DNA of 64,000 nt, from NCBI RefSeq assembly GCF_048403405.1, contig NZ_CP183131.1; one strand, given 5' to 3'. Made by a program: the position numbers and the translations under genes. Shown in pieces: positions 1,740-63,262 of this stretch (positions are counted from its first letter, which is position 1; every line of letters begins with the position of its first letter). The DNA comes from Escherichia coli. GTDB taxonomy: Bacteria; Pseudomonadota; Gammaproteobacteria; Enterobacterales; Enterobacteriaceae. Under the pieces are notes generated by a model. It was not told the origin of the DNA. It searched no databases and saw only the letters and a list, made by a program, of their open reading frames with translations.

Positions 1740-3017
1740 TTAGAAGAAATAGTCGCCATCGTCGTCAGTTTTAGGCAGCTCCTGGTTGAGAGGCTCCTCT
1801 GTCGGCTCCTCTTGGACAGGCTCTTGCTCTACCGGAGTTTCCTCAGGCAAAACCGGCTCATCCTCAACATCAACGCGCTCTTCTCGAACCACATCACCGG
1901 CATTGGATTCATCTTCCGATTCACCCTCGCCTCGTTCTGCAAAACTCTTGAAGAAGTTGTCGATGTCTTCATCCAGGTCAACAGCGTTACCACCGCTGTT
2001 AGTCTGTTCTGATTGAACAGATTCAGTACCACCTACCTGTTGCTGCTTGGTTTCGCCACCCTCTGTTGCAGGGATAAGCTCACCGGCTTTATCGCTTTTC
2101 TGTTCGGCCTTTTCATCTTTAGAACGGTCCCCCATCTGGGCTCCCGAACCGCCAATGTCATTAGCCATGCCCTCTACAGTAATCGAGCCATTGGCATACT
2201 GCTCGATGCGGTCCCTCTCGCTCATGATCAGCACTGCGGCCACGACCTGATAAAAGAAAGGCGCAACGATGTTTCGGCCATCGGCATGTTGCTCGTATCC
2301 CCGGAGGGTTTGGTCGAGCAGCTTGACCAGAGGGTTAAAAGCGCTGTTCAGGAAGCTAAGCCCATCCACCTTGTCGCGGATGTTACGGAGTGTCTGCCGA
2401 GTAGTGACCGCACATTGGTCTCGACCGGCCAAACGTTCCATATAGAACTTATTCGCTTCCTGAACCACTTCGGAGATGAGATCGTCACCCAAGCGCTCAA
2501 CCTTGCGGTTAAGGCGTTTGGCGTTGGCCTCATCTTCGTTCACAGGCTGGATCATGAACACCTGGTACTCAAAGCCAATCCGCTCCTCGACCGTTTCCTT
2601 TGGAAGGGCTCCGGCACGGATAGCTCGTTCATACTCAGGGTTCTCCTGACACCATTCATCCACGGCTTTGTTGTAACCTTTGATGAAATCCTGTTTCAGT
2701 TGGTTAAACTGAAAGTTTATGTCATTCAGCTTGTTACAGATTTCATCGGTCTTGCTGACGGGTACGGCAAATCCGTTCATGAACGGCATACCGAATTTCA
2801 GCAGGAGGCGACGAGTTTCTGTTTTCAGGCGATGAAAGCCTTTCAGCTTAGCCGGATCACAGATCTTCTTACTTCCCAGTTGAGCTACTTTCTCAGGTGG
2901 AATTTCACCACCCTCGCCCAGCTTGAGATCAGATGCAGACAAACGGGTTTGTCCACTCCAGATGTCAAAGTCTACGTGGATAACACAGAGGCTTTGTAGA
3001 TGGTTCACTTTAGTCAT
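1740..3017 (-). CDS. hypothetical protein with acidic C-terminal region ending DDDGDYFF
   Basis: ORF-track frame 1740..3029 uses a TTG; first ATG at ~3017 has GGAG 7-8 nt upstream. No recognisable catalytic motif. Confidence 0.6.
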   Translation of the reverse strand: MTKVNHLQSLCVIHVDFDIWSGQTRLSASDLKLGEGGEIPPEKVAQLGSKKICDPAKLKGFHRLKTETRRLLLKFGMPFMNGFAVPVSKTDEICNKLNDINFQFNQLKQDFIKGYNKAVDEWCQENPEYERAIRAGALPKETVEERIGFEYQVFMIQPVNEDEANAKRLNRKVERLGDDLISEVVQEANKFYMERLAGRDQCAVTTRQTLRNIRDKVDGLSFLNSAFNPLVKLLDQTLRGYEQHADGRNIVAPFFYQVVAAVLIMSERDRIEQYANGSITVEGMANDIGGSGAQMGDRSKDEKAEQKSDKAGELIPATEGGETKQQQVGGTESVQSEQTNSGGNAVDLDEDIDNFFKSFAERGEGESEDESNAGDVVREERVDVEDEPVLPEETPVEQEPVQEEPTEEPLNQELPKTDDDGDYFF

Positions 3018-3039
3018 GATGCACTCCAAAAAGTTGGGG

Positions 3040-3159
3040 GCGCACCACGTCCCGAACCGGGCGGATGCGCCCGGTTGGGCTAGTAAATTAACGTTAATTT
3101 GCTGTTTGTTTTTGGCGACCAGCTATCGCACTTTTCGCTCTCCGAAGAGAACAAAATCT
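3040..3159. repeat. 120-bp direct repeat copy A (hairpin AACCGGGCG-N4-CGCCCGGTT plus palindrome AATTAACGTTAATT), ~25-35 nt upstream of the 1740..3017 gene start
   Basis: Matches 7875..7994 over the full 120 bp by eye. Confidence 0.85.
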
Positions 3160-3216
3160 TGCTTTCCGTTGGAGACTCCCAGAATCCCCAAGGGAAAGCG
3201 GGGGAAAATCCCCCAC

Positions 3217-4227
3217 TCACCAGTAGAACGTCTCTACTTCTTCCGGCAAATCATCAAGAGGAGCAAGCACGTCCTCATCAACAATGTACCGTGGCTTCAC
3301 AGAGCCAGTAACCGTTACACGGCACCGCTCTGATGACTTCTCTCTGTACTGGTCAACATCCTCAGGCTTCACGCCTGACGCCTTATCAGCCAACAGCTTT
3401 TTGTAGTCTACCCGGCCAGCCGCTTTGTATCTCGTTACCATCACACCGCAGTAGTCGGCATGGAAGTATTCCCCCATGAGGGACTTCATGGTGTCGAGAT
3501 GAGGCTTTTGCCTTTCTTGAAGCTCAGACAGTCGCTGTTTCAGCTCCTGAATCTCAGCATCATAGAGGCGGTATTCCTCAGCAGCAGCAATCCAACGGTT
3601 GACCTCTTCACCTTGCGGTATGTACAGGTCTCTCTCTGGATCTTTGTCGGGCTCCTTCTTGTCTACTACCTGTTGCCAGAACTTTTTAGCCTCGGCCAAG
3701 ATTTCTTGAATCATGGCTTCGTCTCGGAGTATTGGAAACTCCTGAATCTGACCTTCAAAGTAGAAGACTAACCAGCCTTGCTTGGCCCCCGTTACCAGGA
3801 GCTGGTGTTGCACCTGCGGGTAATAAAGCTGGTATGCCTTGCTGTTTGCTTTCTCAGCACAAACATCTTCCCAGACAGTCGCACTCGGGCTTTTCAGCTC
3901 GACGGGCTCCCCGTTATCTCTCAGGCCATCCAGGGAGGCCCTCATGAGCGGGTATTGAACCGATTCGACACAGGCGGGGAGCAGCATGTCATCATACTTC
4001 TCCTCGAAAGCGCGTCTTGCAGCATCTTCGTTTTCTATCCCCCGGCGAACCAGCGGATTAAGACTCAGATCGACTTCACGCGCATACCCAGTCTTCTCGG
4101 CCCACAGTCTCCATCGTGTTTTGTACGGAGACCGATTGAGCAGGATAGCGGCGTCAGTGGCTGTTACACCTTGACGCCGCCAATCAAGCCAATCTTCCTC
4201 TCGTTGCGATAGGTTGACTATTTTCAT
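3217..4227 (-). CDS. exo: lambda Exo / YqaJ-like 5'-3' exonuclease
   Basis: 336-aa product resembles lambda exonuclease family; GGAGAGAGG before ATG; sits directly downstream of bet. Confidence 0.8.
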   Translation of the reverse strand: MKIVNLSQREEDWLDWRRQGVTATDAAILLNRSPYKTRWRLWAEKTGYAREVDLSLNPLVRRGIENEDAARRAFEEKYDDMLLPACVESVQYPLMRASLDGLRDNGEPVELKSPSATVWEDVCAEKANSKAYQLYYPQVQHQLLVTGAKQGWLVFYFEGQIQEFPILRDEAMIQEILAEAKKFWQQVVDKKEPDKDPERDLYIPQGEEVNRWIAAAEEYRLYDAEIQELKQRLSELQERQKPHLDTMKSLMGEYFHADYCGVMVTRYKAAGRVDYKKLLADKASGVKPEDVDQYREKSSERCRVTVTGSVKPRYIVDEDVLAPLDDLPEEVETFYW

Positions 4228-4289
4228 GGACCTCTCTCCAATGGTTAGGAGGGAGATCTCCCCCAGCGGGGGAGTCCCCCCCGTTGGGG

Positions 4290-5279
4290 TTAGTAGTAAC
4301 TGCCTTCCGCGCCCTCCTCTTCTGTAACAGGGATCATGTCCTCGTCACTCAAAGGCGGCATTTCTTCGGCACCAGGTTCAGCATTTGCAGAACCACCAGC
4401 GGCGGACTCTTGCTCGTGCGCTTCCTGGTAGTCAGGTTTCGGAGGCTCCATTTGATCCATCTCCTTGTCACGAAGGAATTGAGTCGCATATTGCAGTTCC
4501 GAACCTTCATACCGTCCCTTCACATACTCATGCGCCGCAGACCATGCGTTTTCAGCAATGGCGCGATTTGCGAGTTTGGTTAGGATCGGGTCAAGCTCTT
4601 TGTGCTCAATAGCCAAAGGCTCTTGGCTTTGAACTTGAGATGGTGAAGGGAGATTGGCAATAGCCGGGTTAATGGCCGATGCCTGCTCCATTTCACGGAT
4701 GCGTTCAGCTTCATCCTGGTCATAAATACCAGAGAAACCAAATGCGACACGAGAACACTGGATCAGCGACTTGTGCCGGAGTTGACGCTTGGTGTGCGTT
4801 TGCCAGGGGCCATCAACAGTGTAAGCACCATTGCGACCTTGACCCTGAAACGGTTCACGGTACACCTCATCAATGAACTCCTTGATGCGGATAGGGCGAG
4901 ATCTGTCCTTACGGTAAATCACGCATTCAATCCACTCAGGGCAGTCAACTTTCGCCCCCTGCATTCTGACCATCTTGTCCGAATACACGAACTCGACGCC
5001 ATCATACTGGGGATGCTCGTTGATGATGCGGCTCCAACCATCAACACCTACTACCGGAATGATCCCATTTTGCTTGTCAGGAAACGCATAGATTTCCCGA
5101 GTGAAAGGGTTCAAACCGTACTGTTCAGCCACGATCAGGAGCGTCATCATCTGCTCATCGGTCGGGGCACTTCCATCTCGCTGCTTGAATGCGGTCGCCT
5201 TCAAAGTTTCATAGAACTTTCGGGTGTCCACGCCAAACCGGCTTGCGATACGGGTTACAAGAGATTTGTTATCAGACAT
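4290..5279 (-). CDS. bet: Bet / RecT-family single-strand annealing protein
   Basis: Strong similarity to lambda Bet (LIVAEQYGLNP, EIYAFPDKQNGIIPVVGVDGWSRIINE, RQLRHKSLIQCSRVAFGF). Start moved to internal ATG with GGAG RBS. Confidence 0.9.
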   Translation of the reverse strand: MSDNKSLVTRIASRFGVDTRKFYETLKATAFKQRDGSAPTDEQMMTLLIVAEQYGLNPFTREIYAFPDKQNGIIPVVGVDGWSRIINEHPQYDGVEFVYSDKMVRMQGAKVDCPEWIECVIYRKDRSRPIRIKEFIDEVYREPFQGQGRNGAYTVDGPWQTHTKRQLRHKSLIQCSRVAFGFSGIYDQDEAERIREMEQASAINPAIANLPSPSQVQSQEPLAIEHKELDPILTKLANRAIAENAWSAAHEYVKGRYEGSELQYATQFLRDKEMDQMEPPKPDYQEAHEQESAAGGSANAEPGAEEMPPLSDEDMIPVTEEEGAEGSYY

Positions 5280-5373
5280 GGTGTTTCTCCAATTCACGAA
5301 TGAACGGTTTGAGGACACCATGACCCCCTCGGGGCATGAGTGCCCCCGTGGGGTTTAGTAAGAGTTGGCGGTG

Positions 5374-5901
5374 TTACCCGCCAGCCAAGTGGTGCAGCCG
5401 CATGAACGGGATGTCATCATCCCAGCCATCAGGAGCGGGACCATAGCCTCCGCCCATACCACCTTGCGGTGCTGATTGCTGCACAGGAGCAGATTGCGTA
5501 CCGGCTCCTGTACGTTGCCCTTTTTGGGGCGCTGCACGTTGAGAGTTGTCCTGAGGTGCATTTCCACGACCACCAAGCATCTGCATTTCAACGCAGTGTA
5601 CTTCGGTGGTGTAGCGCTCGATTTGTTGGCTGTCAGTCCACTTCCGGGTGCGGTTGCTCCCTTCGAGATAGACTTGGGAGCCCTTTTTCAGGTACTCACC
5701 AGCGACTTCTGCCAAACGACCTTTAAGCACAATACGGTGCCACTCAGTATGCTCTCTTTGCTCGCCAGACTGCTTATCGCGCCACGTATCCGTTGTTGCA
5801 ACGTTGAAGTTGGCAACGGCAGTTCCGCTTGGCATGTAGCGAATTTCCGGGTCAGAACCGAGATTACCGACCAGAATTACTTTGTTGACGCCTTTAGACA
5901 T
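5374..5901 (-). CDS. ssb: single-stranded DNA-binding protein
   Basis: OB-fold N-terminus ([22 protein letters not shown]), glycine-rich linker, canonical C-terminal tip DDDIPF. Confidence 0.9.
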
Positions 5902-5964
5902 CATGACCTCCAAGTTATTTGGAGAGGGCCAACGCCCCTTTCGGGGAGCAAGCCCCCGTAAGGG

Positions 5965-6873
5965 TTAAAAAAAGTGATCCTCTTGTTCGGCGTCGATCTC
6001 TGCCAGGCGAATCAGCTCAGATACAAGGCCAAGCCTTTCTGCATCTGCTCTTACTTCGTCGTAGCTGAAACCAAACCGTTCAATGAGGGGTTTTAGTGAA
6101 TCAAAACGCTCGTAGTCGAAGGTATCACCCTGTTCATCACAGAATGCCACCAGCGGCTTCTCTACGTTTGAAAAGTCATCCGCGAAACGCTGTTGCAGGT
6201 AAACCAACATCAGCAGGGGTTTGTGACCATGTTCCGGGCGGAGTTCACCAGCGCCTTCCAGCGTAGCTGGATGGATAGTGTTTTCGCCTAGTCCAGTGCT
6301 AACCCCAAGCTCATAACCGCTGTCAGTACGCATCAGCACACTGGGTAGCAAGTCATTTGAGCCTTCGCTCCGAGCAACCTCAAAGCCGATTAAACCGGCT
6401 CCTTTGGCAAAAACCCCAGCAACAAAACCTTTGAAGAGGTTTATGTCACCTGGAGGTAACTCAGAGGGCGGAGATAACAGCCAGTTGAGAGATCCCAAGC
6501 TGGCTGTTTGTCCGGCTGAAACATTCCCCCCTTCCAGCACCGTCTGTGTCTCTGCGTTTACCAGCACCTCATCCAGAAAGGTGTACCCCTGGCTGAGAAA
6601 CTGTGACACATACTGGCTTTCTTTGTCCTTGTAGGACATTGGGATCGTGTCTGGGCCGTTAGCTTCAAAAGGTCCTTCGAGCTTTGTCTCAGACCAATTT
6701 TCAGCTTTCCCATCAGTGACGGTTCGGCGTAGCTCGACCATCGTGAATTGGCCTGGCTCCGAGGAGCTGGGCTCCCGGAGCAACTTGTAGCCAATGAAGA
6801 CTTCTATTGTGGTTTCGTCATTGCCCCACTCTTTAGCAGTGTAACGACGGCACAAACAGTCATTTTTCTTCAT
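5965..6873 (-). CDS. hypothetical protein, C-terminus EQEDHFF
   Basis: 302-aa ORF packed between cobS-like gene and ssb on the same strand. Confidence 0.55.
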   Translation of the reverse strand: MKKNDCLCRRYTAKEWGNDETTIEVFIGYKLLREPSSSEPGQFTMVELRRTVTDGKAENWSETKLEGPFEANGPDTIPMSYKDKESQYVSQFLSQGYTFLDEVLVNAETQTVLEGGNVSAGQTASLGSLNWLLSPPSELPPGDINLFKGFVAGVFAKGAGLIGFEVARSEGSNDLLPSVLMRTDSGYELGVSTGLGENTIHPATLEGAGELRPEHGHKPLLMLVYLQQRFADDFSNVEKPLVAFCDEQGDTFDYERFDSLKPLIERFGFSYDEVRADAERLGLVSELIRLAEIDAEQEDHFF

Positions 6874-6883
6874 GCGTCACCCC

Positions 6884-7852
6884 TTAGCGCCATTGGTCCC
6901 CGAACACATCCTTCGCAACACGCAGGATGGCTTCACGCTCCTCTTTGGCCGCACGGATAAGCAGAGCTTGATCCAGGGCGTATTCAAGAGCATTTGGGGC
7001 ACCACGGAACGCTAGAGACAGTTTCGCCCAACGCACCAACGTCCGAGTGGACATGGTGACGCTGATCTGACCATCTTCACCGTTTTCGCCAAGAAACAGT
7101 TTGCGGACCTGATTAGCAATCCGAACCATTCCCTTCCGCACATTTTCCGGAAGTTTCGGAGTAACACGGCCAAGAATGCTGAGTTCAGCTTCCTCATCCG
7201 CATACCCTACTTTGGTGAAACGATAGCGATCCATAGCTGCGAGGTTCTGCATCATCACCCCCTGGTACAAACCAGAAGCATCACCGGACCCCGTAGAGTT
7301 ACCAGTAACGACCACACGAAACATCGGGTGCGGCTTGATGATTTCCCCGCCATTCTGAGCGATCACAAGGGGACGCCCTTCAAGGACATCGTTGAGACCA
7401 GCCAGCTCGGCAGGGTCGGCCAAATCCACCTCGTTGATGAGGAGCAGATGACCTTCACGCATAGCGACTGCCAGAGGTCCATACATGAACTTCATGACAG
7501 GTGGTTGACCAGGCTTTTCCGCGACCAGAGCGTGATGTCCAATCAGATCTGTCAGCTCCATCCGCCCGTGGGCAGTGATTTGCTGAACAGGCCAGTTGAG
7601 ACGACCAGCGATCTCGGTGATACCTGAGGTTTTGCCAGACCCGGTAGGGCCGGTTACGAACAATGCGTCACCGCCAGGCTCTTTGAGATAGGCCAAGACC
7701 TCTCGCAGAAACTCTTTGCGGAAAACGTAGTTGGTATCAGTGGCAGGGATGAAAGGGTTTGAACCGTCAGCGTAGCCGATGGCCGTTACCTTCTCCGGAA
7801 TGCTGGGCATACCGAAAACCTTGCTTACTGAGAATTGAGAGTATTGAGACAT
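6884..7852 (-). CDS. CobS-like / MoxR-type AAA+ ATPase
   Basis: Walker A GPTGSGKTS; Walker B-like LLLINEVD; AGGAG 7 nt before ATG. Confidence 0.8.
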   Translation of the reverse strand: MSQYSQFSVSKVFGMPSIPEKVTAIGYADGSNPFIPATDTNYVFRKEFLREVLAYLKEPGGDALFVTGPTGSGKTSGITEIAGRLNWPVQQITAHGRMELTDLIGHHALVAEKPGQPPVMKFMYGPLAVAMREGHLLLINEVDLADPAELAGLNDVLEGRPLVIAQNGGEIIKPHPMFRVVVTGNSTGSGDASGLYQGVMMQNLAAMDRYRFTKVGYADEEAELSILGRVTPKLPENVRKGMVRIANQVRKLFLGENGEDGQISVTMSTRTLVRWAKLSLAFRGAPNALEYALDQALLIRAAKEEREAILRVAKDVFGDQWR

Positions 7853-7874
7853 AGGTGCGCTCCTATTGTGACAG

Positions 7875-7994
7875 GCGCACCACGTCCCGAACCGGGCGGA
7901 TGCGCCCGGTTGGGCTAGTAAATTAACGTTAATTTGCTGTTTGTTTTTGGCGACCAGCTATCGCACTTTTCGCTCTCCGAAGAGAACAAAATCT
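7875..7994. repeat. 120-bp direct repeat copy B, immediately upstream of the cobS-like gene start
   Basis: Identical by eye to 3040..3159. Confidence 0.85.
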
Positions 7995-8071
7995 GCTTAC
8001 TGATGGTATTCACCATGAGTAAGAAGACTTTTAAGGAGCGAGGAGAGTAGCCTCTCCTGGAGGCCACTCCC

Positions 8072-57919: not shown

Positions 57920-59536
57920 CGGCCGATTCTGTTGAAAAAGTAGCTTTAGCGGCAGCCTGCCGATCAGGTGTGCCTGCTGTCGAAGTGGCTGCAAGCCACT
58001 TCAAGTTGCCTTCCGGCGTTTCACTGAGCGTCCTTGCTCAGGTTTAAGGGTTAATTTGAGGGTTTCTGCTCGTAGCAGGCATACCTATCCCGTCAGCGGT
58101 GGCCCTTGAGGCAAAAGCTTGGCCATGCGGCGCAGGTTCTGCACCATCGCAGCCAAGGTGAATTCGTCAGTGGCACCCGTTAGGCCACGCAGTCGTAAAC
58201 GGTCGAGTTTCATGATCCGTTTGAGGTGGGCGAAAAGCATCTCCACCTTCTTTCGTTCGCAGCGAGAGACGAGGTACTCCGGTGTCTTGGCGATGCGTCG
58301 AGCCACGTCGCGGGCAGCCTCATGGATGCTGCGGACGATCTTCCGATTCGGCGTGTTGGGGCAGCATTTCGCTTTCAACGGGCAGGTGGCGCAGTCGGTT
58401 TGGCTGGAGCGGTAAATGACGGTTTTGGCCTTAGTTACCCGCGACCTTTGCTGGGTGAAGGCGCGCCATTCACTGCGTAGCGGTTTGCCGGCTGGGCAGC
58501 GATATTCATTGGCGTCCTGACTCCAGTGAAAGTCGTTACTGGAGAGGCTGTCGTCCTTGCGCTCGGTCTTGTCCCACACCGGCACATGCGGTTCGATGTC
58601 CTTTTCTTCGACCATCCAGGCCAGCATCGGGGCGGTGCCATAAGCGGTATCGCCGATAAGGCGTTCCGGTGTGAGATCGAACTGCGCCTCGACACGCTCG
58701 ACCATCGTCCTAGTCGAATCGACTTCGGCGGTACGGTGCGCCGGGGTAGCTTCCACGTCCATGATCACACCGTGCTCAGTGTCGATCAGGTAATTCGTGG
58801 AGTAGGCAAAAAAGGCCGGGCCACCTGGCGCTGCTGTCCAACGGGACTGAGGATCAGTGAGCGAAATTTTCTTGGGAAGAGCCTCAGCCAGCGCCTCTTC
58901 ATCAAGGGCTTCGAGGTACTCGCGCACTGCGCGGCTGCTGAGCTTTGGATCGTTCCAATCGACCTCATCTCCCGCCACCCCACGTTGCCGGCTGGCATCC
59001 GCCTTAATGATGCTGGCGTCGACGGCGAAACCTTCACCCTTGACTAGGCCGGCTGCCATGCAGCGCCGCAGCACCTCATTGAATAACCAGCGGAATAGAT
59101 CGCTGTCACGAAAACGCCCATGGCGATTCTTCGAGAAGGTCGAGTGATTGGGGACTTCGTCTTCCAGACCCAACCGGCAGAACCAGCGATAGGCCAGGTT
59201 CAGGTGCACCTCTTCGCACAATCGCCGCTCGGAACGAATGCCATAGCAGTAGCCGACGACCAGCATGCGCACCATCAACTCCGGGTCAATCGAGGGACGC
59301 CCGATGGGGCTATAGAAATCTGCCAGGTAGGCACGTAGATCACTGAGATCCAAGCACTGGTCGATGCTGCGCAGGAGATGTTGGGCCGGGACGTGATCTT
59401 CCAGATTGAACGAGTAGAACAGGCGCTGCTGTCCTCCCGGTAACTGTCCCATCATGCTGTTCGCCCCCACGCTCGCTGACAAAGCAATTTTGCCAACGGC
59501 ATGGGGAGGCCGCTACTTTTTCAACAGAATCGGCCG
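57920..59536 (-). mobile_element. insertion sequence with 25-bp perfect terminal inverted repeats (IS1182/IS5-superfamily-like; possibly ISCfr1-related, name from memory)
   Basis: CGGCCGATTCTGTTGAAAAAGTAGC at ~57920 and its reverse complement at ~59512; single transposase ORF. Confidence 0.7.
58085..59482 (-). CDS. tnpA: IS transposase (DDE type)
   Basis: 465-aa ORF filling the TIR-bounded element. Confidence 0.7.
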   Translation of the reverse strand: MSASVGANSMMGQLPGGQQRLFYSFNLEDHVPAQHLLRSIDQCLDLSDLRAYLADFYSPIGRPSIDPELMVRMLVVGYCYGIRSERRLCEEVHLNLAYRWFCRLGLEDEVPNHSTFSKNRHGRFRDSDLFRWLFNEVLRRCMAAGLVKGEGFAVDASIIKADASRQRGVAGDEVDWNDPKLSSRAVREYLEALDEEALAEALPKKISLTDPQSRWTAAPGGPAFFAYSTNYLIDTEHGVIMDVEATPAHRTAEVDSTRTMVERVEAQFDLTPERLIGDTAYGTAPMLAWMVEEKDIEPHVPVWDKTERKDDSLSSNDFHWSQDANEYRCPAGKPLRSEWRAFTQQRSRVTKAKTVIYRSSQTDCATCPLKAKCCPNTPNRKIVRSIHEAARDVARRIAKTPEYLVSRCERKKVEMLFAHLKRIMKLDRLRLRGLTGATDEFTLAAMVQNLRRMAKLLPQGPPLTG

Positions 59537-59569
59537 CACACAGCCATTCGGCTCAACAGAACCCTGCCT

Positions 59570-60727
59570 TTACCCCACCAAACTCCGGAAACTCGCCCGG
59601 TAGTCCGTCGGCTTGAGATGCACATGTTGGCTGAGGTCGCCGGGTAGCGTGAACAGGCGCGGACCGTCCCGAAACTGGAACACGCGATACAGATGGAATT
59701 GATCGCCCGCCTCCTTGGAGAATTCGAGTTCGTTGTGGCTGACCAAGAAAGACGAGCCTACCCCGCCATTGGTGGTTTTCACCTCGATGAAGCGCTCATG
59801 GGCGTCCTCTTCGAACGACAGGATGTCGAACCCCGCACCGTCTCCCTGGGTGTCGGACACCCAATCCAGCCGCTGAAAAAGCTCTGGGTGGCCGAGCTCG
59901 GTCAGGCGTTGCTGTTCGTAGCCAATCACCCACTGCTCCCCTGCCCGGCCCAGCTTGCGGTTGGCTTCATCGCGAGCGGCATAATCGAACTTTCGCGGTA
60001 GGCGTTGCCGTAGAGATGCCGGGGTACGCACAAGCACTTCACGGGCGGGTGGTTCTACCAAAGCCGCTCGGTAGGTTTTGTCACCCGGAAGTTTTACCTC
60101 CTCCAGGGCATCGACAAGAGCGCCGACCGTCTGCTGATGTTCCAGAACGTAGGCGTGTACGGATTTACGCAGCAGCAGTTGGCTGTTGCCGCGTGGCTTG
60201 TAGCCGTTGATATAGGGCAGGCCCAGGGCATCGAGTACGGCGCTAATGTTCTGGTGCTTGAGCTCGACTGAAGACTTGCTGCGACCGTTCAGCAGTTGGC
60301 GCAGTGCCTGGTTGTGCTCGGACTTGTGGTACGGCTCCCCAGCCGCCTCGGCACGCAGCATGTCGAAATAGTCTTCGACCGTGGCCAGGACCTCTTCTTC
60401 GGACCAGTCTTCGCCGATGCGAATGATGCGAAACCCGAGCCGCGTCAGCGCCGGAACGACGGTCGTCTCGCCACCGGAGAAGCTGTCAGCAGTGAGCGGG
60501 CCCTGCTCGGGAAATTGCTTGCCGAAGGCCACACCGGCGATGGCCTTGGAATCGCAATCGGTGCCGGTCTTCGGATCACGTACCAGGAAGTCGCGGGACT
60601 TGCCGTAGCCGTGGCGCGCCAGGAATTTCGTGCGGCCCAGTTGCACGAACTCATCGATGGCAGCCTGCACGGCGGCGGGGCTTCGAAGCTGGGAGAGTTG
60701 AGACACAGGGTCCTTCCTTACTGTCAT
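59570..60727 (-). CDS. DUF3883-like (NOV C-terminal, restriction-endonuclease-fold) domain protein
   Basis: C-terminal region WVIGYEQQRL...GFDILSFEEDAHERFIEVKTT...FHLYRVFQF resembles DUF3883 (recalled); start set at ATG giving MTVRKDP; GC-rich. Confidence 0.5.
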   Translation of the reverse strand: MTVRKDPVSQLSQLRSPAAVQAAIDEFVQLGRTKFLARHGYGKSRDFLVRDPKTGTDCDSKAIAGVAFGKQFPEQGPLTADSFSGGETTVVPALTRLGFRIIRIGEDWSEEEVLATVEDYFDMLRAEAAGEPYHKSEHNQALRQLLNGRSKSSVELKHQNISAVLDALGLPYINGYKPRGNSQLLLRKSVHAYVLEHQQTVGALVDALEEVKLPGDKTYRAALVEPPAREVLVRTPASLRQRLPRKFDYAARDEANRKLGRAGEQWVIGYEQQRLTELGHPELFQRLDWVSDTQGDGAGFDILSFEEDAHERFIEVKTTNGGVGSSFLVSHNELEFSKEAGDQFHLYRVFQFRDGPRLFTLPGDLSQHVHLKPTDYRASFRSLVG

Positions 60728-61288
60728 GGTGTGCCGGGAACCGCCGAGCCACGAGATTATGAGTAGCCCCTGAACAGAAACGTCACGATAAAAGCCGTGA
60801 ACGCCACCAGGCCCATTAAATCCCTTGCGTATTTGCAGCCCGTGCTGTCCAAACCTGTACCAGGTCCGATCAACACGCTCCAACCATTGAGGTACGAAAA
60901 CACCGCCTGACCGAACAAAAAATGCGTGATAGCCGCCGCAGCCATGACGCCGGAATCGTCAGACAGGCTGTAGCTGTTGACCATTGCCCTGTACGCCTGC
61001 ATCTGAAATGGCTATTGCCCTGATGGGAGCCGGCTTTTCAGCCACCGACACCAGCGATGCCGTCAATATTCTTTACCCGATAACCATGACCGTACAAGCT
61101 AACAAGGCCTGGCAAGCCAGCGGACTTAAAAAGTCTTTTTTTCTACCATCCCACAAAAAAGTTCGTGGTGGAGAAAAGATAAGCTATGCAAGGCTTTAGG
61201 AGACGTGGTTTTTCAGGATGACGAAGAACGATTCGGCGCTAGGTGCAACATAGGTGCATCGCACGAGCGCTAGGAACGGCGAAAAAAG

Positions 61289-61587
61289 GCGGACGTGGCG
61301 AAATCGGTAGACGCAGCAGACTTTAAAATTGGAGTGCCCGCGGGGAAATCCGCGGAGTAGAACCGCTCAAAGTCGGGGAACGCTAACGGGCAATACCCTA
61401 AGCCAATCCCGAGCCAAGCCCCTTCGGGGGAAGGTGTAGAGACTGGACGGGCGGCGCCTAAAGCCTTCGGGCAATGGCGAAGGGACAGTCCAGACCACGA
61501 ACGTCATCAGACGGCGGCGAAAGTCGAGGTGGTACGAAAATCTGCTTCTCTGTGAGAGTACGGGTTCGAGTCCCGTCGTCCGCACCA
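61289..61587 (+). tRNA. tRNA-Leu(UAA) gene interrupted in the anticodon loop by a ~213-nt group I intron
   Basis: 5' exon GCGGACGTGGCGAAATCGGTAGACGCAGCAGACTT; 3' exon AAAATCTGC + long variable arm + T-arm ACGGGTTCGAGTCCCGT + CGTCCGCACCA; intron ends in G and carries group I core-like GTGTAGAGACTGGACGG / ACAGTCCAGACC. Confidence 0.7.
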
Positions 61588-61680
61588 CAAAGCCAAACAT
61601 CCCTGCGATGATCGACCTCTGGGCGTTTGGTCGTGAGCCCGCCACCCTCGCGCTACGCTTTGCGCAGGCGTCGAAGGCGA

Positions 61681-62223
61681 TCAGGTGCGCCCATCGATTC
61701 CGTCGAGCACCATCGCTGCGAGTTCATCGCTGGTGTGTGCACCACTATCGAGAACACGGGTTGTGCATGGAAGCCGTTCCCTTGCGGCCAAGCATCGGGC
61801 GACATTCGCTAATCGCCACTCTCGAATCTCCGCATTTCGATTCGGGTCAGGATGCATGGTCTGGTTCGCGATCCGGTGACGCAATAGGTCCTCGTTGAGC
61901 GTCAGAAAGATGTGCAGCAGCTGATCGTCGATCCGCCTTACCCCGTCGAGTATCTCAGTCAGATAGTCCGGGTGCACGAGCGTCATTGGGATGATGATGT
62001 CCTGCGAGTAATTCCTTCGAATCTCCCTGACCGCCGCGATCGTAAGTCCCCTCCACAAGGGGAGATCCTGATAGTCTCCGCTCGCTGGCATGGGGACCGT
62101 TTCTTTCACCACGAACCCGATTTCCTCGGGGTCAAAGATCAGCGATTTGGAACGCCGATCGCGCAGCCGCTTAGCGAGCGTCGTCTTTCCGGCGCCGAAA
62201 GGTCCGTTGATCCAGATTATCAT
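61681..62223 (-). CDS. tmrB: TmrB-like P-loop ATPase (tunicamycin resistance protein family)
   Basis: N-terminus MIIWINGPFGAGKTTLAKRL; adjacent to aac(3)-II. Confidence 0.8.
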   Translation of the reverse strand: MIIWINGPFGAGKTTLAKRLRDRRSKSLIFDPEEIGFVVKETVPMPASGDYQDLPLWRGLTIAAVREIRRNYSQDIIIPMTLVHPDYLTEILDGVRRIDDQLLHIFLTLNEDLLRHRIANQTMHPDPNRNAEIREWRLANVARCLAARERLPCTTRVLDSGAHTSDELAAMVLDGIDGRT

Positions 62224-62235
62224 TGTCGACGGCCT

Positions 62236-63096
62236 CTAACCTGAAGGCTCGCAAGAGCGCTCGACGGCCTCGTGCGGAGGCACGATCGGAGTGGTTCCGA
62301 AATGCTTCTCAAGATAGGTGACGCCGAACGTCACGATGTCCTGCGCGTCGAACAGGTAGCACTGAGCAAAGCCCACGACACCTTCTCGATGGCGACCGAG
62401 CTTCACGTAAGCATTTGCTATAGTTTCAACCGCATCCGGCTTTCCTTCGATAGCAAAGCAATCGAGAATGCCGTTTGAATCGTAATCCGATGCCGTTTTC
62501 CAGGCGACTTCACCGTCTCTTCCAAGCATCGGCATCTCATACGTCACCCACCGTTTGTTGGGGATATCGGCAACCGCCTCGGCGTAGTGCAATGCGGTAA
62601 CGGAGTTTAGCGGCGCACCCAACAGCAGGGCCTTCCCGCCAAGGCGAACGAACCGCTCGACGGGCGATCCTTCCCCCAAGGCGTGACCGAGTTCGTGAGG
62701 CTCCGTCAGCGTTTCAGCCAGCGGACCAACCGCGACCATCGATGCATCGGGGTGCGCGCTGCGCCGCGCGCCGGGGGCTTGAACCAGAAATTGATTCAGC
62801 AGGCCGAACCCACGGTAAGTCCCGGCTGTTGCGGGATCGAACGGCAGCCAGGTACGGCGGGCTTCGTCATCCAGCCGAGCGCCATTCAGAGTCTCCTCGT
62901 AGGGTGATCGGTCCCACGACGCGTATCCCATCACAGTGCCAGTCGGCCCAACCGCGGAGCGTAACGCGGCAACGACCGTCTCCGCTCCTCCTTCGACCGG
63001 ACCAATCGCTTTAAGTGAGGCATGCACCATCAAGAGGTCACCGGTTTGGACTCCGAGTTTTTGAAGCGCCTCCGTTATTGCCTTCCGCGTATGCAT
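62236..63096 (-). CDS. aac(3)-IId: aminoglycoside 3-N-acetyltransferase AAC(3)-II (IIa/IId/IIe group)
   Basis: Protein recognised from MHTRKAITEALQKLGVQTGDLLMVHASLKAIGPVEGGAETVV...; start set at MHTRK. Confidence 0.9.
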   Translation of the reverse strand: MHTRKAITEALQKLGVQTGDLLMVHASLKAIGPVEGGAETVVAALRSAVGPTGTVMGYASWDRSPYEETLNGARLDDEARRTWLPFDPATAGTYRGFGLLNQFLVQAPGARRSAHPDASMVAVGPLAETLTEPHELGHALGEGSPVERFVRLGGKALLLGAPLNSVTALHYAEAVADIPNKRWVTYEMPMLGRDGEVAWKTASDYDSNGILDCFAIEGKPDAVETIANAYVKLGRHREGVVGFAQCYLFDAQDIVTFGVTYLEKHFGTTPIVPPHEAVERSCEPSG

Positions 63097-63120
63097 CGCG
63101 ATATCTCCTCTAAACTGCAA

Positions 63121-63262
63121 AACACTATACGGGGTCTGACGCTCAGTGGAACGAAAACTCACGTTAAGGGATTTTGGTCATGAGATTATCAAAAAGGATC
63201 TTCACCTAGATCCTTTTAAATTAAAAATGAAGTTTTAAATCAATCTAAAGTATATATGAGTA
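63121..63262 (-). mobile_element. second Tn2/Tn3 end fragment (IRR + ~100 bp), direct repeat of 56256..56396, cut by IS26
   Basis: Same IR and adjacent sequence as downstream of blaTEM; diverges into IS26 IRL. Confidence 0.8.

Follow-up and report, generated by a model that had tools for sequence, protein, structure and literature searches.

The minus-strand gene beside ISCfr1 in this Escherichia coli DNA is best read as encoding a restriction-like innate-immunity DNA endonuclease built from three modules, with the plasmid copy a passenger, a reading to which we assign slightly better than even odds (about 0.55). The gene lies within the whole stretch of 64,000 nucleotides that was analysed, hereafter the window. 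In this reading the two modules at the N-terminus would pick out the DNA to be cut, which may be modified or foreign in some other way; in paralogues an EVE modified-base reader stands at the same position. The PD-(D/E)xK domain would then cut the selected DNA. The nuclease may act alone, as its contexts in Pseudomonas aeruginosa, P. nitroreducens and Pseudomonas sp. gcc21 suggest, or together with a helicase/NTPase encoded next to it, which is the arrangement in the closest Stutzerimonas contexts. The family itself is known, and databases already label the protein DUF3883.

The gene product and its domains

The original prediction described a 385-aa protein. The minus-strand ORF is real and an ATG at 60727 does yield 385 aa, but the true product is most likely 378 aa, translated from the GTG at 60706 (Table 1). 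RefSeq calls a 378-aa product (WP_000080861.1), all of the 100+ full-length homologues have 376-381 aa, the DNA match to chromosomal orthologues ends at 60705-60725, and the Shine-Dalgarno-like sequence AAGGAAGGA precedes this GTG. The homology to three orthologue loci (L005-L007) runs across the Shine-Dalgarno-like site as far as 60725. The homologue lengths, the homology limits and the Shine-Dalgarno position speak against both longer candidates, the ATG at 60727 and a TTG at 60883 (437 aa). The gene, named orf1182 in the AMR literature, is GC-rich as predicted (60.9% GC and 72.3% GC3, against 52.3% GC in the window). Purifying selection among the chromosomal orthologues is strong, with dN/dS of 0.066-0.089 for the gene against these orthologues.

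Table 1. Features of the gene, its flanks and the resistance module (positions in the window)
Feature	Position	Strand	Basis or detail
ISCfr1 (IS1182 family)	57920..59536	minus	pCTX-M3 annotation, inverted-repeat self-hits
ISCfr1 transposase	58085-59482		
Coding sequence, 378-aa ScoMcrA_N / three-helix / NOV_C (DUF3883) protein, most likely extent	59570..60706, stop codon included	minus	ORF list, RefSeq, homologue length
NOV_C/DUF3883 PD-(D/E)xK nuclease domain, residues 256-353	59648..59941	minus	Putative catalytic E257, D294, E308, K310
Three-helix homeodomain/Myb-like bundle, residues ~100-160	60227..60409	minus	Invariant W101, Y113, K150, N153
ScoMcrA-like N-terminal head domain (PF26345), residues 1-97	60416..60706	minus	Conserved DSKAIAGVA motif
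Shine-Dalgarno-like AAGGAAGGA	60711..60719	minus	4 nt 5' of GTG 60706; read from sequence
Orphan spacer, ~51% GC, two small ORFs	60726..61118 (~390 bp)		Composition profile
Small spacer ORF	60757-61002	minus	
Terminator-like hairpin, just upstream of the gene	60800-60783	minus	Promoter/terminator scan
Small spacer ORF	60984-61199	plus	
tRNA-Leu(UAA) 5' exon, ends at U34	61289..61323	plus	ARAGORN
Group I intron, 213 nt, IC3-type Leu.3Ug class	61324..61536	plus	Rfam Intron_gpI, homology
tRNA-Leu(UAA) 3' exon with encoded CCA	61537..61587	plus	ARAGORN on joined exons
tmrB-like AAA ATPase	61681-62223	minus	pCTX-M3 annotation
aac(3)-IId	62236-63162	minus	pCTX-M3 annotation

The resemblance of the C-terminal region to DUF3883/NOV, noted in the original prediction, is far above chance. 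A Pfam search assigns the nuclease domain PF13020 (NOV_C/DUF3883) with 77 bits, where the cut-off is 22.1 (E=1.2e-21), and the match takes in profile positions 1-90 of 91. The nuclease fold is borne out by sequence, by conserved catalytic residues and by the predicted structure, in which a restriction-endonuclease-like alpha/beta core is present. The catalytic motif pattern E257...D294...E308-x-K310 is intact, and these four residues are invariant across 51 aligned sequences and all kept in the plasmid copy. The N-terminal half had been described as holding no assignable motif, but it contains a ScoMcrA_N head domain and a three-helix DNA-binding-like domain; the PDC-S36 core described below begins with the latter, which we infer to bind DNA. 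The proposal of a nuclease or defence gene keeps its nuclease fold and its defence context, and loses the unassignable N-terminal half and the joint island origin with a tRNA.

How the substrate would be selected is less clearly indicated. By Pfam, the protein contains no SRA, EVE/PUA, SBD, DUF3427 or other characterised modified-DNA reader and no HNH, so that it lacks the fusion of such a reader to a nuclease that defines type IV (modification-dependent) enzymes, and no methyltransferase gene adjoins the nuclease gene in the window. Substrate selection by the head domain is conjecture, because its fold matches the ScoMcrA head only and no characterised reader fold, and because even in ScoMcrA the head is small, flexibly attached and given as of unknown function (PMC6224610). 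An architecture search with the ScoMcrA_N profile returned mostly short fragments or stand-alone proteins of ~100 aa, and says little on fusion partners. A bolder version, in which the plasmid copy works on its own as an immunity nuclease and the ScoMcrA-type head is a new sensor of DNA modification or structure, strikes us as quite improbable.

Relatives and chromosomal neighbourhoods

The closest model in PADLOC is PDC-S36, matched at 353.5 bits over positions 4-279 of 280 by residues 98 to 373-375 of the 378-aa protein (105-380 of the 385-aa form). The plasmid protein shares this whole profile, which many representatives carry as a stand-alone protein of ~280 aa, and differs in the additional ~97-aa ScoMcrA_N head domain. 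PADLOC-DB v2 models PDC-S36 as a single-gene candidate; PDC systems are non-validated defence candidates proposed by guilt-by-embedding (PMC10855318), and our literature search found no publication that mentions PDC-S36. The family comprises 8053 representative clusters at E<1e-3, in which the core occurs alone or behind many different N-terminal extensions. In two paralogues (P0166 and P0222) the position of the N-terminal modules is occupied by an EVE modified-base reader over the Pfam cut-off, and in a third (P0213) EVE scores just under it.

Several known systems share parts of this architecture. Only the head domain is held in common with ScoMcrA, the type IV phosphorothioate/5mC-dependent enzyme of Streptomyces coelicolor (PDB 5ZMM); the plasmid protein does not have the arrangement of ScoMcrA-type head, SBD, SRA and HNH, and its nuclease is PD-(D/E)xK (NOV_C), not HNH. 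DUF3883 supplies the catalytic domain in YenY4I and McaZI, both modification-dependent enzymes, and DUF3427-DUF3883 enzymes occur in defence islands, at times beside DUF2075/helicase NTPases (PMC6765204). As in the group of YenY4I and McaZI (PUA-DUF3427-DUF3883 and DUF3427-DUF3883), a C-terminal DUF3883 PD-(D/E)xK domain follows separate DNA-recognition domains, although in the plasmid protein these modules are the head and the three-helix bundle, with neither DUF3427 nor PUA. PD-T4-1, an experimentally validated anti-phage system of E. coli (Vassallo et al. 2022, PMC9519451) and of the same PD-(D/E)xK class, matches through residues 240-380 (PADLOC model positions 231-377 of 383, E=1.8e-18); this homology is not full-length, since the nuclease domain alone is shared and the N-terminal 230 residues are unrelated. 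Similarly, Tiamat (TmtA) has a C-terminal NOV_C domain (E down to 2e-14 with the PADLOC TmtA models), but those models span 1300-1655 residues and the match is limited to their last ~110 positions.

Matches to Hjc/RecU/VRR-NUC-like proteins could also be taken to mean that this is a housekeeping or structure-specific DNA repair or recombination nuclease and not an immunity protein. These matches reflect the common PD-(D/E)xK core, however, and restriction enzymes score alike. The gene moreover occurs sporadically and like a cassette, with integrases, toxin-antitoxin genes and defence genes around it and never in conserved housekeeping synteny, and its variable N-terminal domains, EVE among them, are typical of conflict systems. 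We consider a repair role very improbable.

The closest relatives of the immunity nuclease proposed here are chromosomal genes in Stutzerimonas and Pseudomonas (up to 89% amino acid identity). The expected association with defence is supported by the PDC-S36 match, to an unvalidated candidate, and by orthologues in defence islands, where the recurrent embedding beside known defence systems on which PDC-S36 was founded is seen again. Our context survey comprised 8 proteins in ~6 context types and is not a statistical test. A fused SF2+UvrD helicase lies directly upstream of the closest orthologues, with Gabija and an integrase nearby. Elsewhere the neighbours are a divergent pair of MazG-like and SLFN-g3/DUF2075 helicase genes with toxin-antitoxin genes and recombinases; YjiT/YjiV-like, HNH and UvrD genes; or, close by, Mrr. 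DNA homology among all of these contexts is limited to the CDS, as expected for a mobile defence cassette.

These neighbourhoods raise the possibility that the helicase/NTPase is an obligate partner, in which case the plasmid copy would be the orphaned, inactive subunit of a nuclease-NTPase defence system. The closest orthologues (88-89%) form an apparent operon with the ~1700-aa helicase, a 1714-1729-aa fusion of DpdF/PsyrT-like SF2 and UvrD/GajB-like parts, and start either 1 bp past the helicase stop codon or beyond a gap of 93 bp; the 1729-aa helicase of L002 is encoded at 2810-7999 of that locus. Elsewhere, a YjiV-like DEAD helicase is encoded upstream or a DUF2075/SLFN-g3 helicase adjoins the gene, DUF3427-DUF3883 enzymes also stand beside DUF2075 NTPases (PMC6765204), and the pairing of PD-(D/E)xK nucleases with NTPases is common (10.1101/2025.07.10.664194). 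The plasmid lacks the helicase, and the two-gene operon of the Stutzerimonas loci (L002-L005) gives way to orphan DNA upstream of the gene. However, the type of helicase varies by context and in some it is on the opposite strand, none adjoins the gene in Pseudomonas sp. gcc21 (86% identity) or Pseudomonas sp. TE3786 (76% identity), the core is a single-gene candidate in PADLOC, and no two loci share homology past the CDS. An obligate partner is, in our judgement, unlikely.

The resistance module and the plasmid copy

The IS flank was correctly predicted: ISCfr1 lies 34 bp downstream of the stop codon of the gene and is bounded by 25-bp terminal inverted repeats (57920-57944 and 59512-59536). 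In Stutzerimonas kunmingensis (L002), too, an ISCfr1-like copy lies directly downstream of the gene, with 94.9% identity over the IS versus 83.5% over the gene. The module has been reported as aacC2-tmrB-orf192-orf228-orf1182-ISCfr1 (PMC7096625); aac(3)-IId and tmrB are its selected cargo, and the nuclease gene now moves with the IS26/Tn2-bounded aac(3)-II module. The region is present at >=99% identity in 1348 plasmids, and the gene in 599 of 5426 complete E. coli genomes (about 11%). Between the gene and the tRNA lies the orphan spacer, in which we looked for homology to the orthologue and the alphaproteobacterial loci and found none. The 81-aa upstream ORF has homologues in the same module alone; its apparent relatives at 45-76% are in fact error-rich assemblies of the same plasmid region.

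The gene looks like a passenger on the plasmid. It is 3'-truncated in about a third of carrier plasmids, and such frequent truncation argues against selection for the gene there. The plasmid copy may even be an inert hitch-hiker, an intact ORF that is unexpressed or targetless on plasmids and kept by its place between ISCfr1 and aac(3)-II/tmrB, a view limited to this copy that leaves room for a defence role of the chromosomal orthologues. From 59400 to 61700 the scan found no sigma-70-like promoter, a terminator-like hairpin precedes the gene, and orphan DNA replaces the native upstream sequence right at the start codon. The intact 3' end is found in 735 plasmid records (PLSDB), compared with 1174 that have the 5' end and 2340 that have aac(3)-II; of the E. 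coli records sampled, about half are missing the final 35 nt. The copies are >=99% identical and so carry no within-plasmid selection signal. On the other hand, the ORF is full-length, keeps every catalytic residue and is preceded by a good ribosome-binding site; the genes from aac(3)-IId through blaTEM-1 all lie on the same strand, so that read-through transcription is possible; and the orthologues appear to stand alone in several genomes. We hold inertness to be a possible but tentative account.

Should the copy be active, a defence nuclease would be genetically tied to a very common aminoglycoside-resistance module, and antibiotic selection would co-select phage or plasmid restriction. By hitch-hiking with aac(3)-II, a working anti-phage/anti-plasmid factor would then be carried by ~11% of complete E. 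coli genomes and >1000 sequenced plasmids, which would matter for phage therapy and for competition among plasmids. An active copy would, in addition, offer a first way into the function of the ScoMcrA head domain and of the PADLOC candidate PDC-S36. If inactive, the gene simply helps to trace how the aacC2-tmrB-ISCfr1 module became a mosaic in which Pseudomonas-type and alphaproteobacterial-type DNA are combined.

A split tRNA-Leu gene and the mosaic origin of the module

A tRNA had been placed at the other flank. With its default settings ARAGORN reports no tRNA anywhere in the window; once introns are allowed, it finds a split tRNA at 61289-61587 (+). The tRNA-Leu(UAA) is real and lies ~580 bp upstream of the nuclease gene, and it is split by a 213-nt group I intron. 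When the exons are joined at U34|A35, ARAGORN calls an 86-nt tRNA-Leu(taa). In P1 of the intron, U-1 pairs with G, and the intron ends in omega-G (CUU/u...g/AAAA); the position U34/A35, the U-1:G pair, the omega-G and the canonical joining of the exons are those of the Leu.3Ug class (Williams 2020, 10.1101/2020.01.27.920355). Rfam Intron_gpI scores the intron at 36.8 bits (E=1e-6), under the GA of 50; three chromosomal relatives (L060, L130 and L069) fall under it as well, indicating that this GA is insensitive for the clade of the intron. The copy in the window keeps 87 of 87 consensus pairs, and compensatory changes occur at 12 pairs across the family. The split tRNA-Leu carries no RefSeq annotation.

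Genome contigs were searched for a donor with a 20-mer from the much-conserved intron core, which matched at least 120 stretches and yielded at least 24 full-length relatives of the split tRNA. Among the matches listed, alphaproteobacterial chromosomes come closest to the tRNA-Leu, its intron and the ~170 bp upstream of them; their copies are 94% identical over the whole 299-nt tRNA gene, and this homology ends exactly at the tRNA 3' end. No donor at >=99% was among the matches listed in this 20-mer scan, and the split tRNA may have come from a gammaproteobacterial donor.

The proximity of the intron invites the idea that the nuclease is a homing or mobility endonuclease for the group I intron or the IS, which is effectively refuted. 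The gene is not part of the intron and is encoded on the opposite strand, and the intron, only 213 nt long, has no ORF. The gene is near 0 of 24 chromosomal relatives of the split tRNA among the matches listed, the intron is at none of the orthologue loci, and the two differ in taxonomic affinity.

The original prediction also had the gene co-mobilised from a chromosomal island. A foreign chromosomal origin holds, given the relatives in Stutzerimonas/Pseudomonas, one with an ISCfr1-like element; a joint origin with the tRNA does not. The gene and ISCfr1 have gammaproteobacterial affinity, and the split tRNA, among the matches listed, alphaproteobacterial affinity. Judged by these differing affinities and by the orphan ~390 bp in between, the module is a mosaic and not one island. 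A Pseudomonas/Stutzerimonas-type cassette with its adjoining ISCfr1 would have been joined to a fragment comprising the alphaproteobacterial tRNA-Leu, tmrB and aac(3)-IId. The plasmid sRNA NDM-sR6 (PMC5880898), considered as a transcript of the tRNA or its intron, maps instead to the 3' end of aacC2 and the start of tmrB.

Extent and domains of the orf1182 product

The gene itself was correctly observed in the original prediction; its start codon, its N-terminal domains and the nature of the neighbouring tRNA had to be corrected. The minus-strand reading frame ending at 59570 does translate to 385 amino acids from an ATG at 60727, but we moved the start to a GTG at 60706, giving a product of 378 residues. 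Almost all of more than 100 full-length homologues are 378-380 amino acids long, RefSeq annotates the pCTX-M3 copy as a 378-aa 'DUF3883 domain-containing protein' (WP_000080861.1), DNA homology to every chromosomal orthologue reaches its limit at 60705-60725, and a AAGGAAGGA Shine-Dalgarno sequence lies 4 bases upstream of the GTG. The shorter form was therefore taken as the gene, and residues are numbered on it. As predicted, it is GC-rich (60.9%, GC3 72.3%, against 52.3% in the window). The gene is real and evolving under constraint, with purifying selection among orthologues (dN/dS 0.066-0.089 against five chromosomal orthologues).

The proposed C-terminal resemblance to DUF3883/NOV is borne out by Pfam NOV_C (PF13020, formerly DUF3883; 77 bits, E=1.2e-21) and by E257, D294, E308 and K310, which are invariant in a 51-sequence alignment (33-88% identity) and match the E...D...ExK signature of PD-(D/E)xK nucleases. 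The N-terminal half, thought to have no assignable motif, carries a head domain: precomputed Pfam labels place PF26345 'ScoMcrA_N' at the N-terminus of all homologues. The local Pfam copy did not reproduce PF26345 on the protein; in an independent test of this domain, the alignment profile matches residues 8-96 of ScoMcrA (PDB 5ZMM, E=9.5e-16). From its sequence, the product is a three-domain protein with an intact predicted PD-(D/E)xK site.

Features and coordinates (window unless another locus is named)
Feature	Coordinates	Strand	Remark
ISCfr1	57920-59536		ends 34 bp past the stop codon of the gene
Gene (orf1182)	59570-60706	-	378 aa
Segment lacking in truncated variant	59570-59604	-	last 35 nt of gene
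Orphan DNA	60726-61118		~390 bp, GC ~51%
81-aa ORF	60757-61002	-	membrane-like
Terminator-like hairpin	60800-60783	-	
tRNA-Leu(UAA) with group I intron	61289-61587	+	Leu.3Ug site
Group I intron (Rfam)	61314-61506		36.8 bits, E=1e-6
NDM-sR6	62140-62460	-	321 nt
ISCfr1-like element	L002 9152-10768		15 bp past orthologue
Fused helicase	L002 2810-7999; L005 2763-7907		1714-1729 aa
MazG-like and SLFN-g3/DUF2075 pair	L008-L010 and L014, ~4430-6830		divergent from orthologue

A large nuclease family associated with defence islands

Residues 98-373 match the entire 280-position profile of PDC-S36 (353 bits), an unvalidated PADLOC candidate. Searched exhaustively with HMMER, 1.84 billion representatives contained 8053 clusters with E<1e-3, 776 of them with E<1e-30; the gene product is a member of a very large, defence-island-associated family. 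The core of ~280 amino acids occurs alone or after N-terminal extensions of 85-350 residues, and 46 such extensions comprise at least 27 unrelated types. One is EVE, a PUA-like modified-base reader, which passes the Pfam threshold in two homologous proteins (P0166 and P0222) and narrowly misses it in a third (P0213). Modification-dependent restriction enzymes are built in this way, with a constant nuclease behind N-terminal domains that can be exchanged.

DUF3883 is the catalytic domain of the experimentally studied YenY4I and McaZI, and DUF2075 NTPases have been observed beside DUF3427-DUF3883 enzymes (PMC6765204). The validated anti-phage system PD-T4-1 and Tiamat TmtA also end in a DUF3883 domain, but share only this nuclease domain with the gene product. 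Lacking SBD, SRA and HNH domains, the product is no ScoMcrA orthologue. It also lacks the characterised modification reader expected of a type IV enzyme: the ScoMcrA head domain has no function ascribed to it (PMC6224610). Matches in the phage collection, namely small Vibrio phage-like 'PE' elements (PQ189357.1 and relatives) and Listeria phages (OR848142.1), are confined to residues ~224-376, the C-terminal nuclease domain, at 32-37% identity.

The proposed role as a nuclease or defence gene is thus upheld in part, by the NOV_C fold with its catalytic residues and by the defence-island family, whereas the accompanying claim of co-mobilisation with the tRNA is not. We put at slightly better than even (about 0.55) the chance that the product is a restriction-like immunity nuclease, in which the head and three-helix domains would choose the DNA substrate and the enzyme would work by itself or together with a helicase/NTPase.

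Orthologue loci and the plasmid module

The closest relatives (84-89% amino acid identity) are from Stutzerimonas kunmingensis, S. degradans and Pseudomonas spp. At the loci of homologues P0005 and P0004, the gene directly follows a fused helicase (DpdF/PsyrT-like SF2 plus a UvrD/GajB-like SF1 part); at such Stutzerimonas-type loci the orthologue either starts 1 bp past the helicase stop codon or is separated from it by 93 bp. The fused helicase had no full-length match among PADLOC v2 models, and helicase and nuclease may form an undescribed two-gene system. Gabija and an integrase adjoin one of these chromosomal loci (L005). The orthologues of P. aeruginosa (70%) and P. nitroreducens (84%) stand alone amid toxin-antitoxin genes and recombinases, divergent from a MazG-like pyrophosphatase and SLFN-g3/DUF2075 helicase pair, that of Pseudomonas sp. 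gcc21 (86%) stands alone with Mrr nearby, and that of Variovorax (65%) lies behind YjiT/YjiV-like genes, within a large island of helicase and HNH genes. In none of the orthologue loci compared does nucleotide homology to the window reach beyond the coding sequence, a cassette-like behaviour typical of defence genes.

On plasmids, the gene is the 'orf1182' of the antimicrobial resistance literature, with no function assigned there, in the module aacC2-tmrB-orf192-orf228-orf1182-ISCfr1, which stands in place of Tn2 tnpR-res-tnpA (PMC7096625). The gene region (59400-61300) was found in 1348 PLSDB plasmids, 1297 of them at ≥99% identity, and the gene in 599 of 5426 complete E. coli genomes; aac(3)-II is present in 2340 plasmids, the 5' end of the gene in 1174 and its intact 3' end in 735. 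A variant common in plasmids and E. coli lacks the last 35 nt (alignments begin at query 36 or 69), presumably with another element in place of ISCfr1, and such truncated copies are still named DUF3883 proteins in RefSeq.

The predicted IS flank is present. Of the two IS copies found 15-34 bp past the stop codons of orthologues, the ISCfr1-like element of S. kunmingensis (locus L002) is 94.9% identical to that of the window and the orthologue only 83.5%. This ties gene and IS, as one unit, to the S. kunmingensis lineage. With the IS copies more alike than the orthologues that they follow, the pattern suggests either an ancient insertion common to both or a site preference just past the gene.

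No sigma-70-like promoter was predicted in 59400-61700, and a terminator-like hairpin lies on the gene's strand. Because aac(3)-IId, blaTEM-1 and every gene between them lie on this strand, read-through transcription into the gene is conceivable. The plasmid sRNA NDM-sR6 of pNDM-HK, with three transcription start sites (PMC5880898), comprises the aac(3)-II 3' end and the first tmrB-like codons; transcription of the strand therefore reaches at least this point. On the plasmid, a passenger role is the better supported reading, and an active defence nuclease that is linked to resistance and has a novel sensor domain appears unlikely. RefSeq already annotates the gene as DUF3883, and PADLOC would flag it.

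A split tRNA-Leu and the origin of the module

ARAGORN found no tRNA by default; with introns allowed it returned a split one. The predicted tRNA flank hence exists, but as a tRNA-Leu(UAA) interrupted by a 213-nt group I intron rather than a plain tRNA. The Rfam match (E-value mode) is below the gathering score of 50, as are those of the chromosomal relatives. The junctions CUU/u...g/AAAA correspond to the Leu.3Ug site in its classical form (P1 has a U-1:G pair, and omega-G is present), and this placement gives a spliced 86-nt tRNA-Leu(UAA) that ARAGORN accepts. The window copy keeps 87 of 87 consensus base pairs, with compensatory changes at 12 pairs across the family, and the tRNA gene, interrupted by an intron of self-splicing type, is apparently intact. 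Of 5426 complete E. coli genomes 635 carry it, as do more than 1000 plasmids; 658 E. coli RefSeq records have no annotation at its position, and a literature search turned up no publication that connects group I introns with the aac(3)-II module.

The donor scan yielded at least 24 chromosomal relatives. Among the matches listed, the closest over all 299 nt are alphaproteobacterial: a Roseovarius MAG (94.6%), Paramesorhizobium deserti (94.0%), Mesorhizobium sp. (93.7%) and a Novosphingobium MAG (93.4%). Homology to chromosomal relatives runs ~170 bp upstream, to 61119-61149, and ends exactly at the tRNA 3' end. Between this segment and the gene lies orphan DNA of lower GC, and therefore the module is, judged by sequence, a mosaic. 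Contrary to the idea of co-mobilisation from one chromosomal island, gene and tRNA probably did not lie side by side in a single donor, judging from the matches listed. A membrane-like 81-aa ORF in the orphan DNA, whose homologues occur only in the same module, is followed by the terminator-like hairpin.
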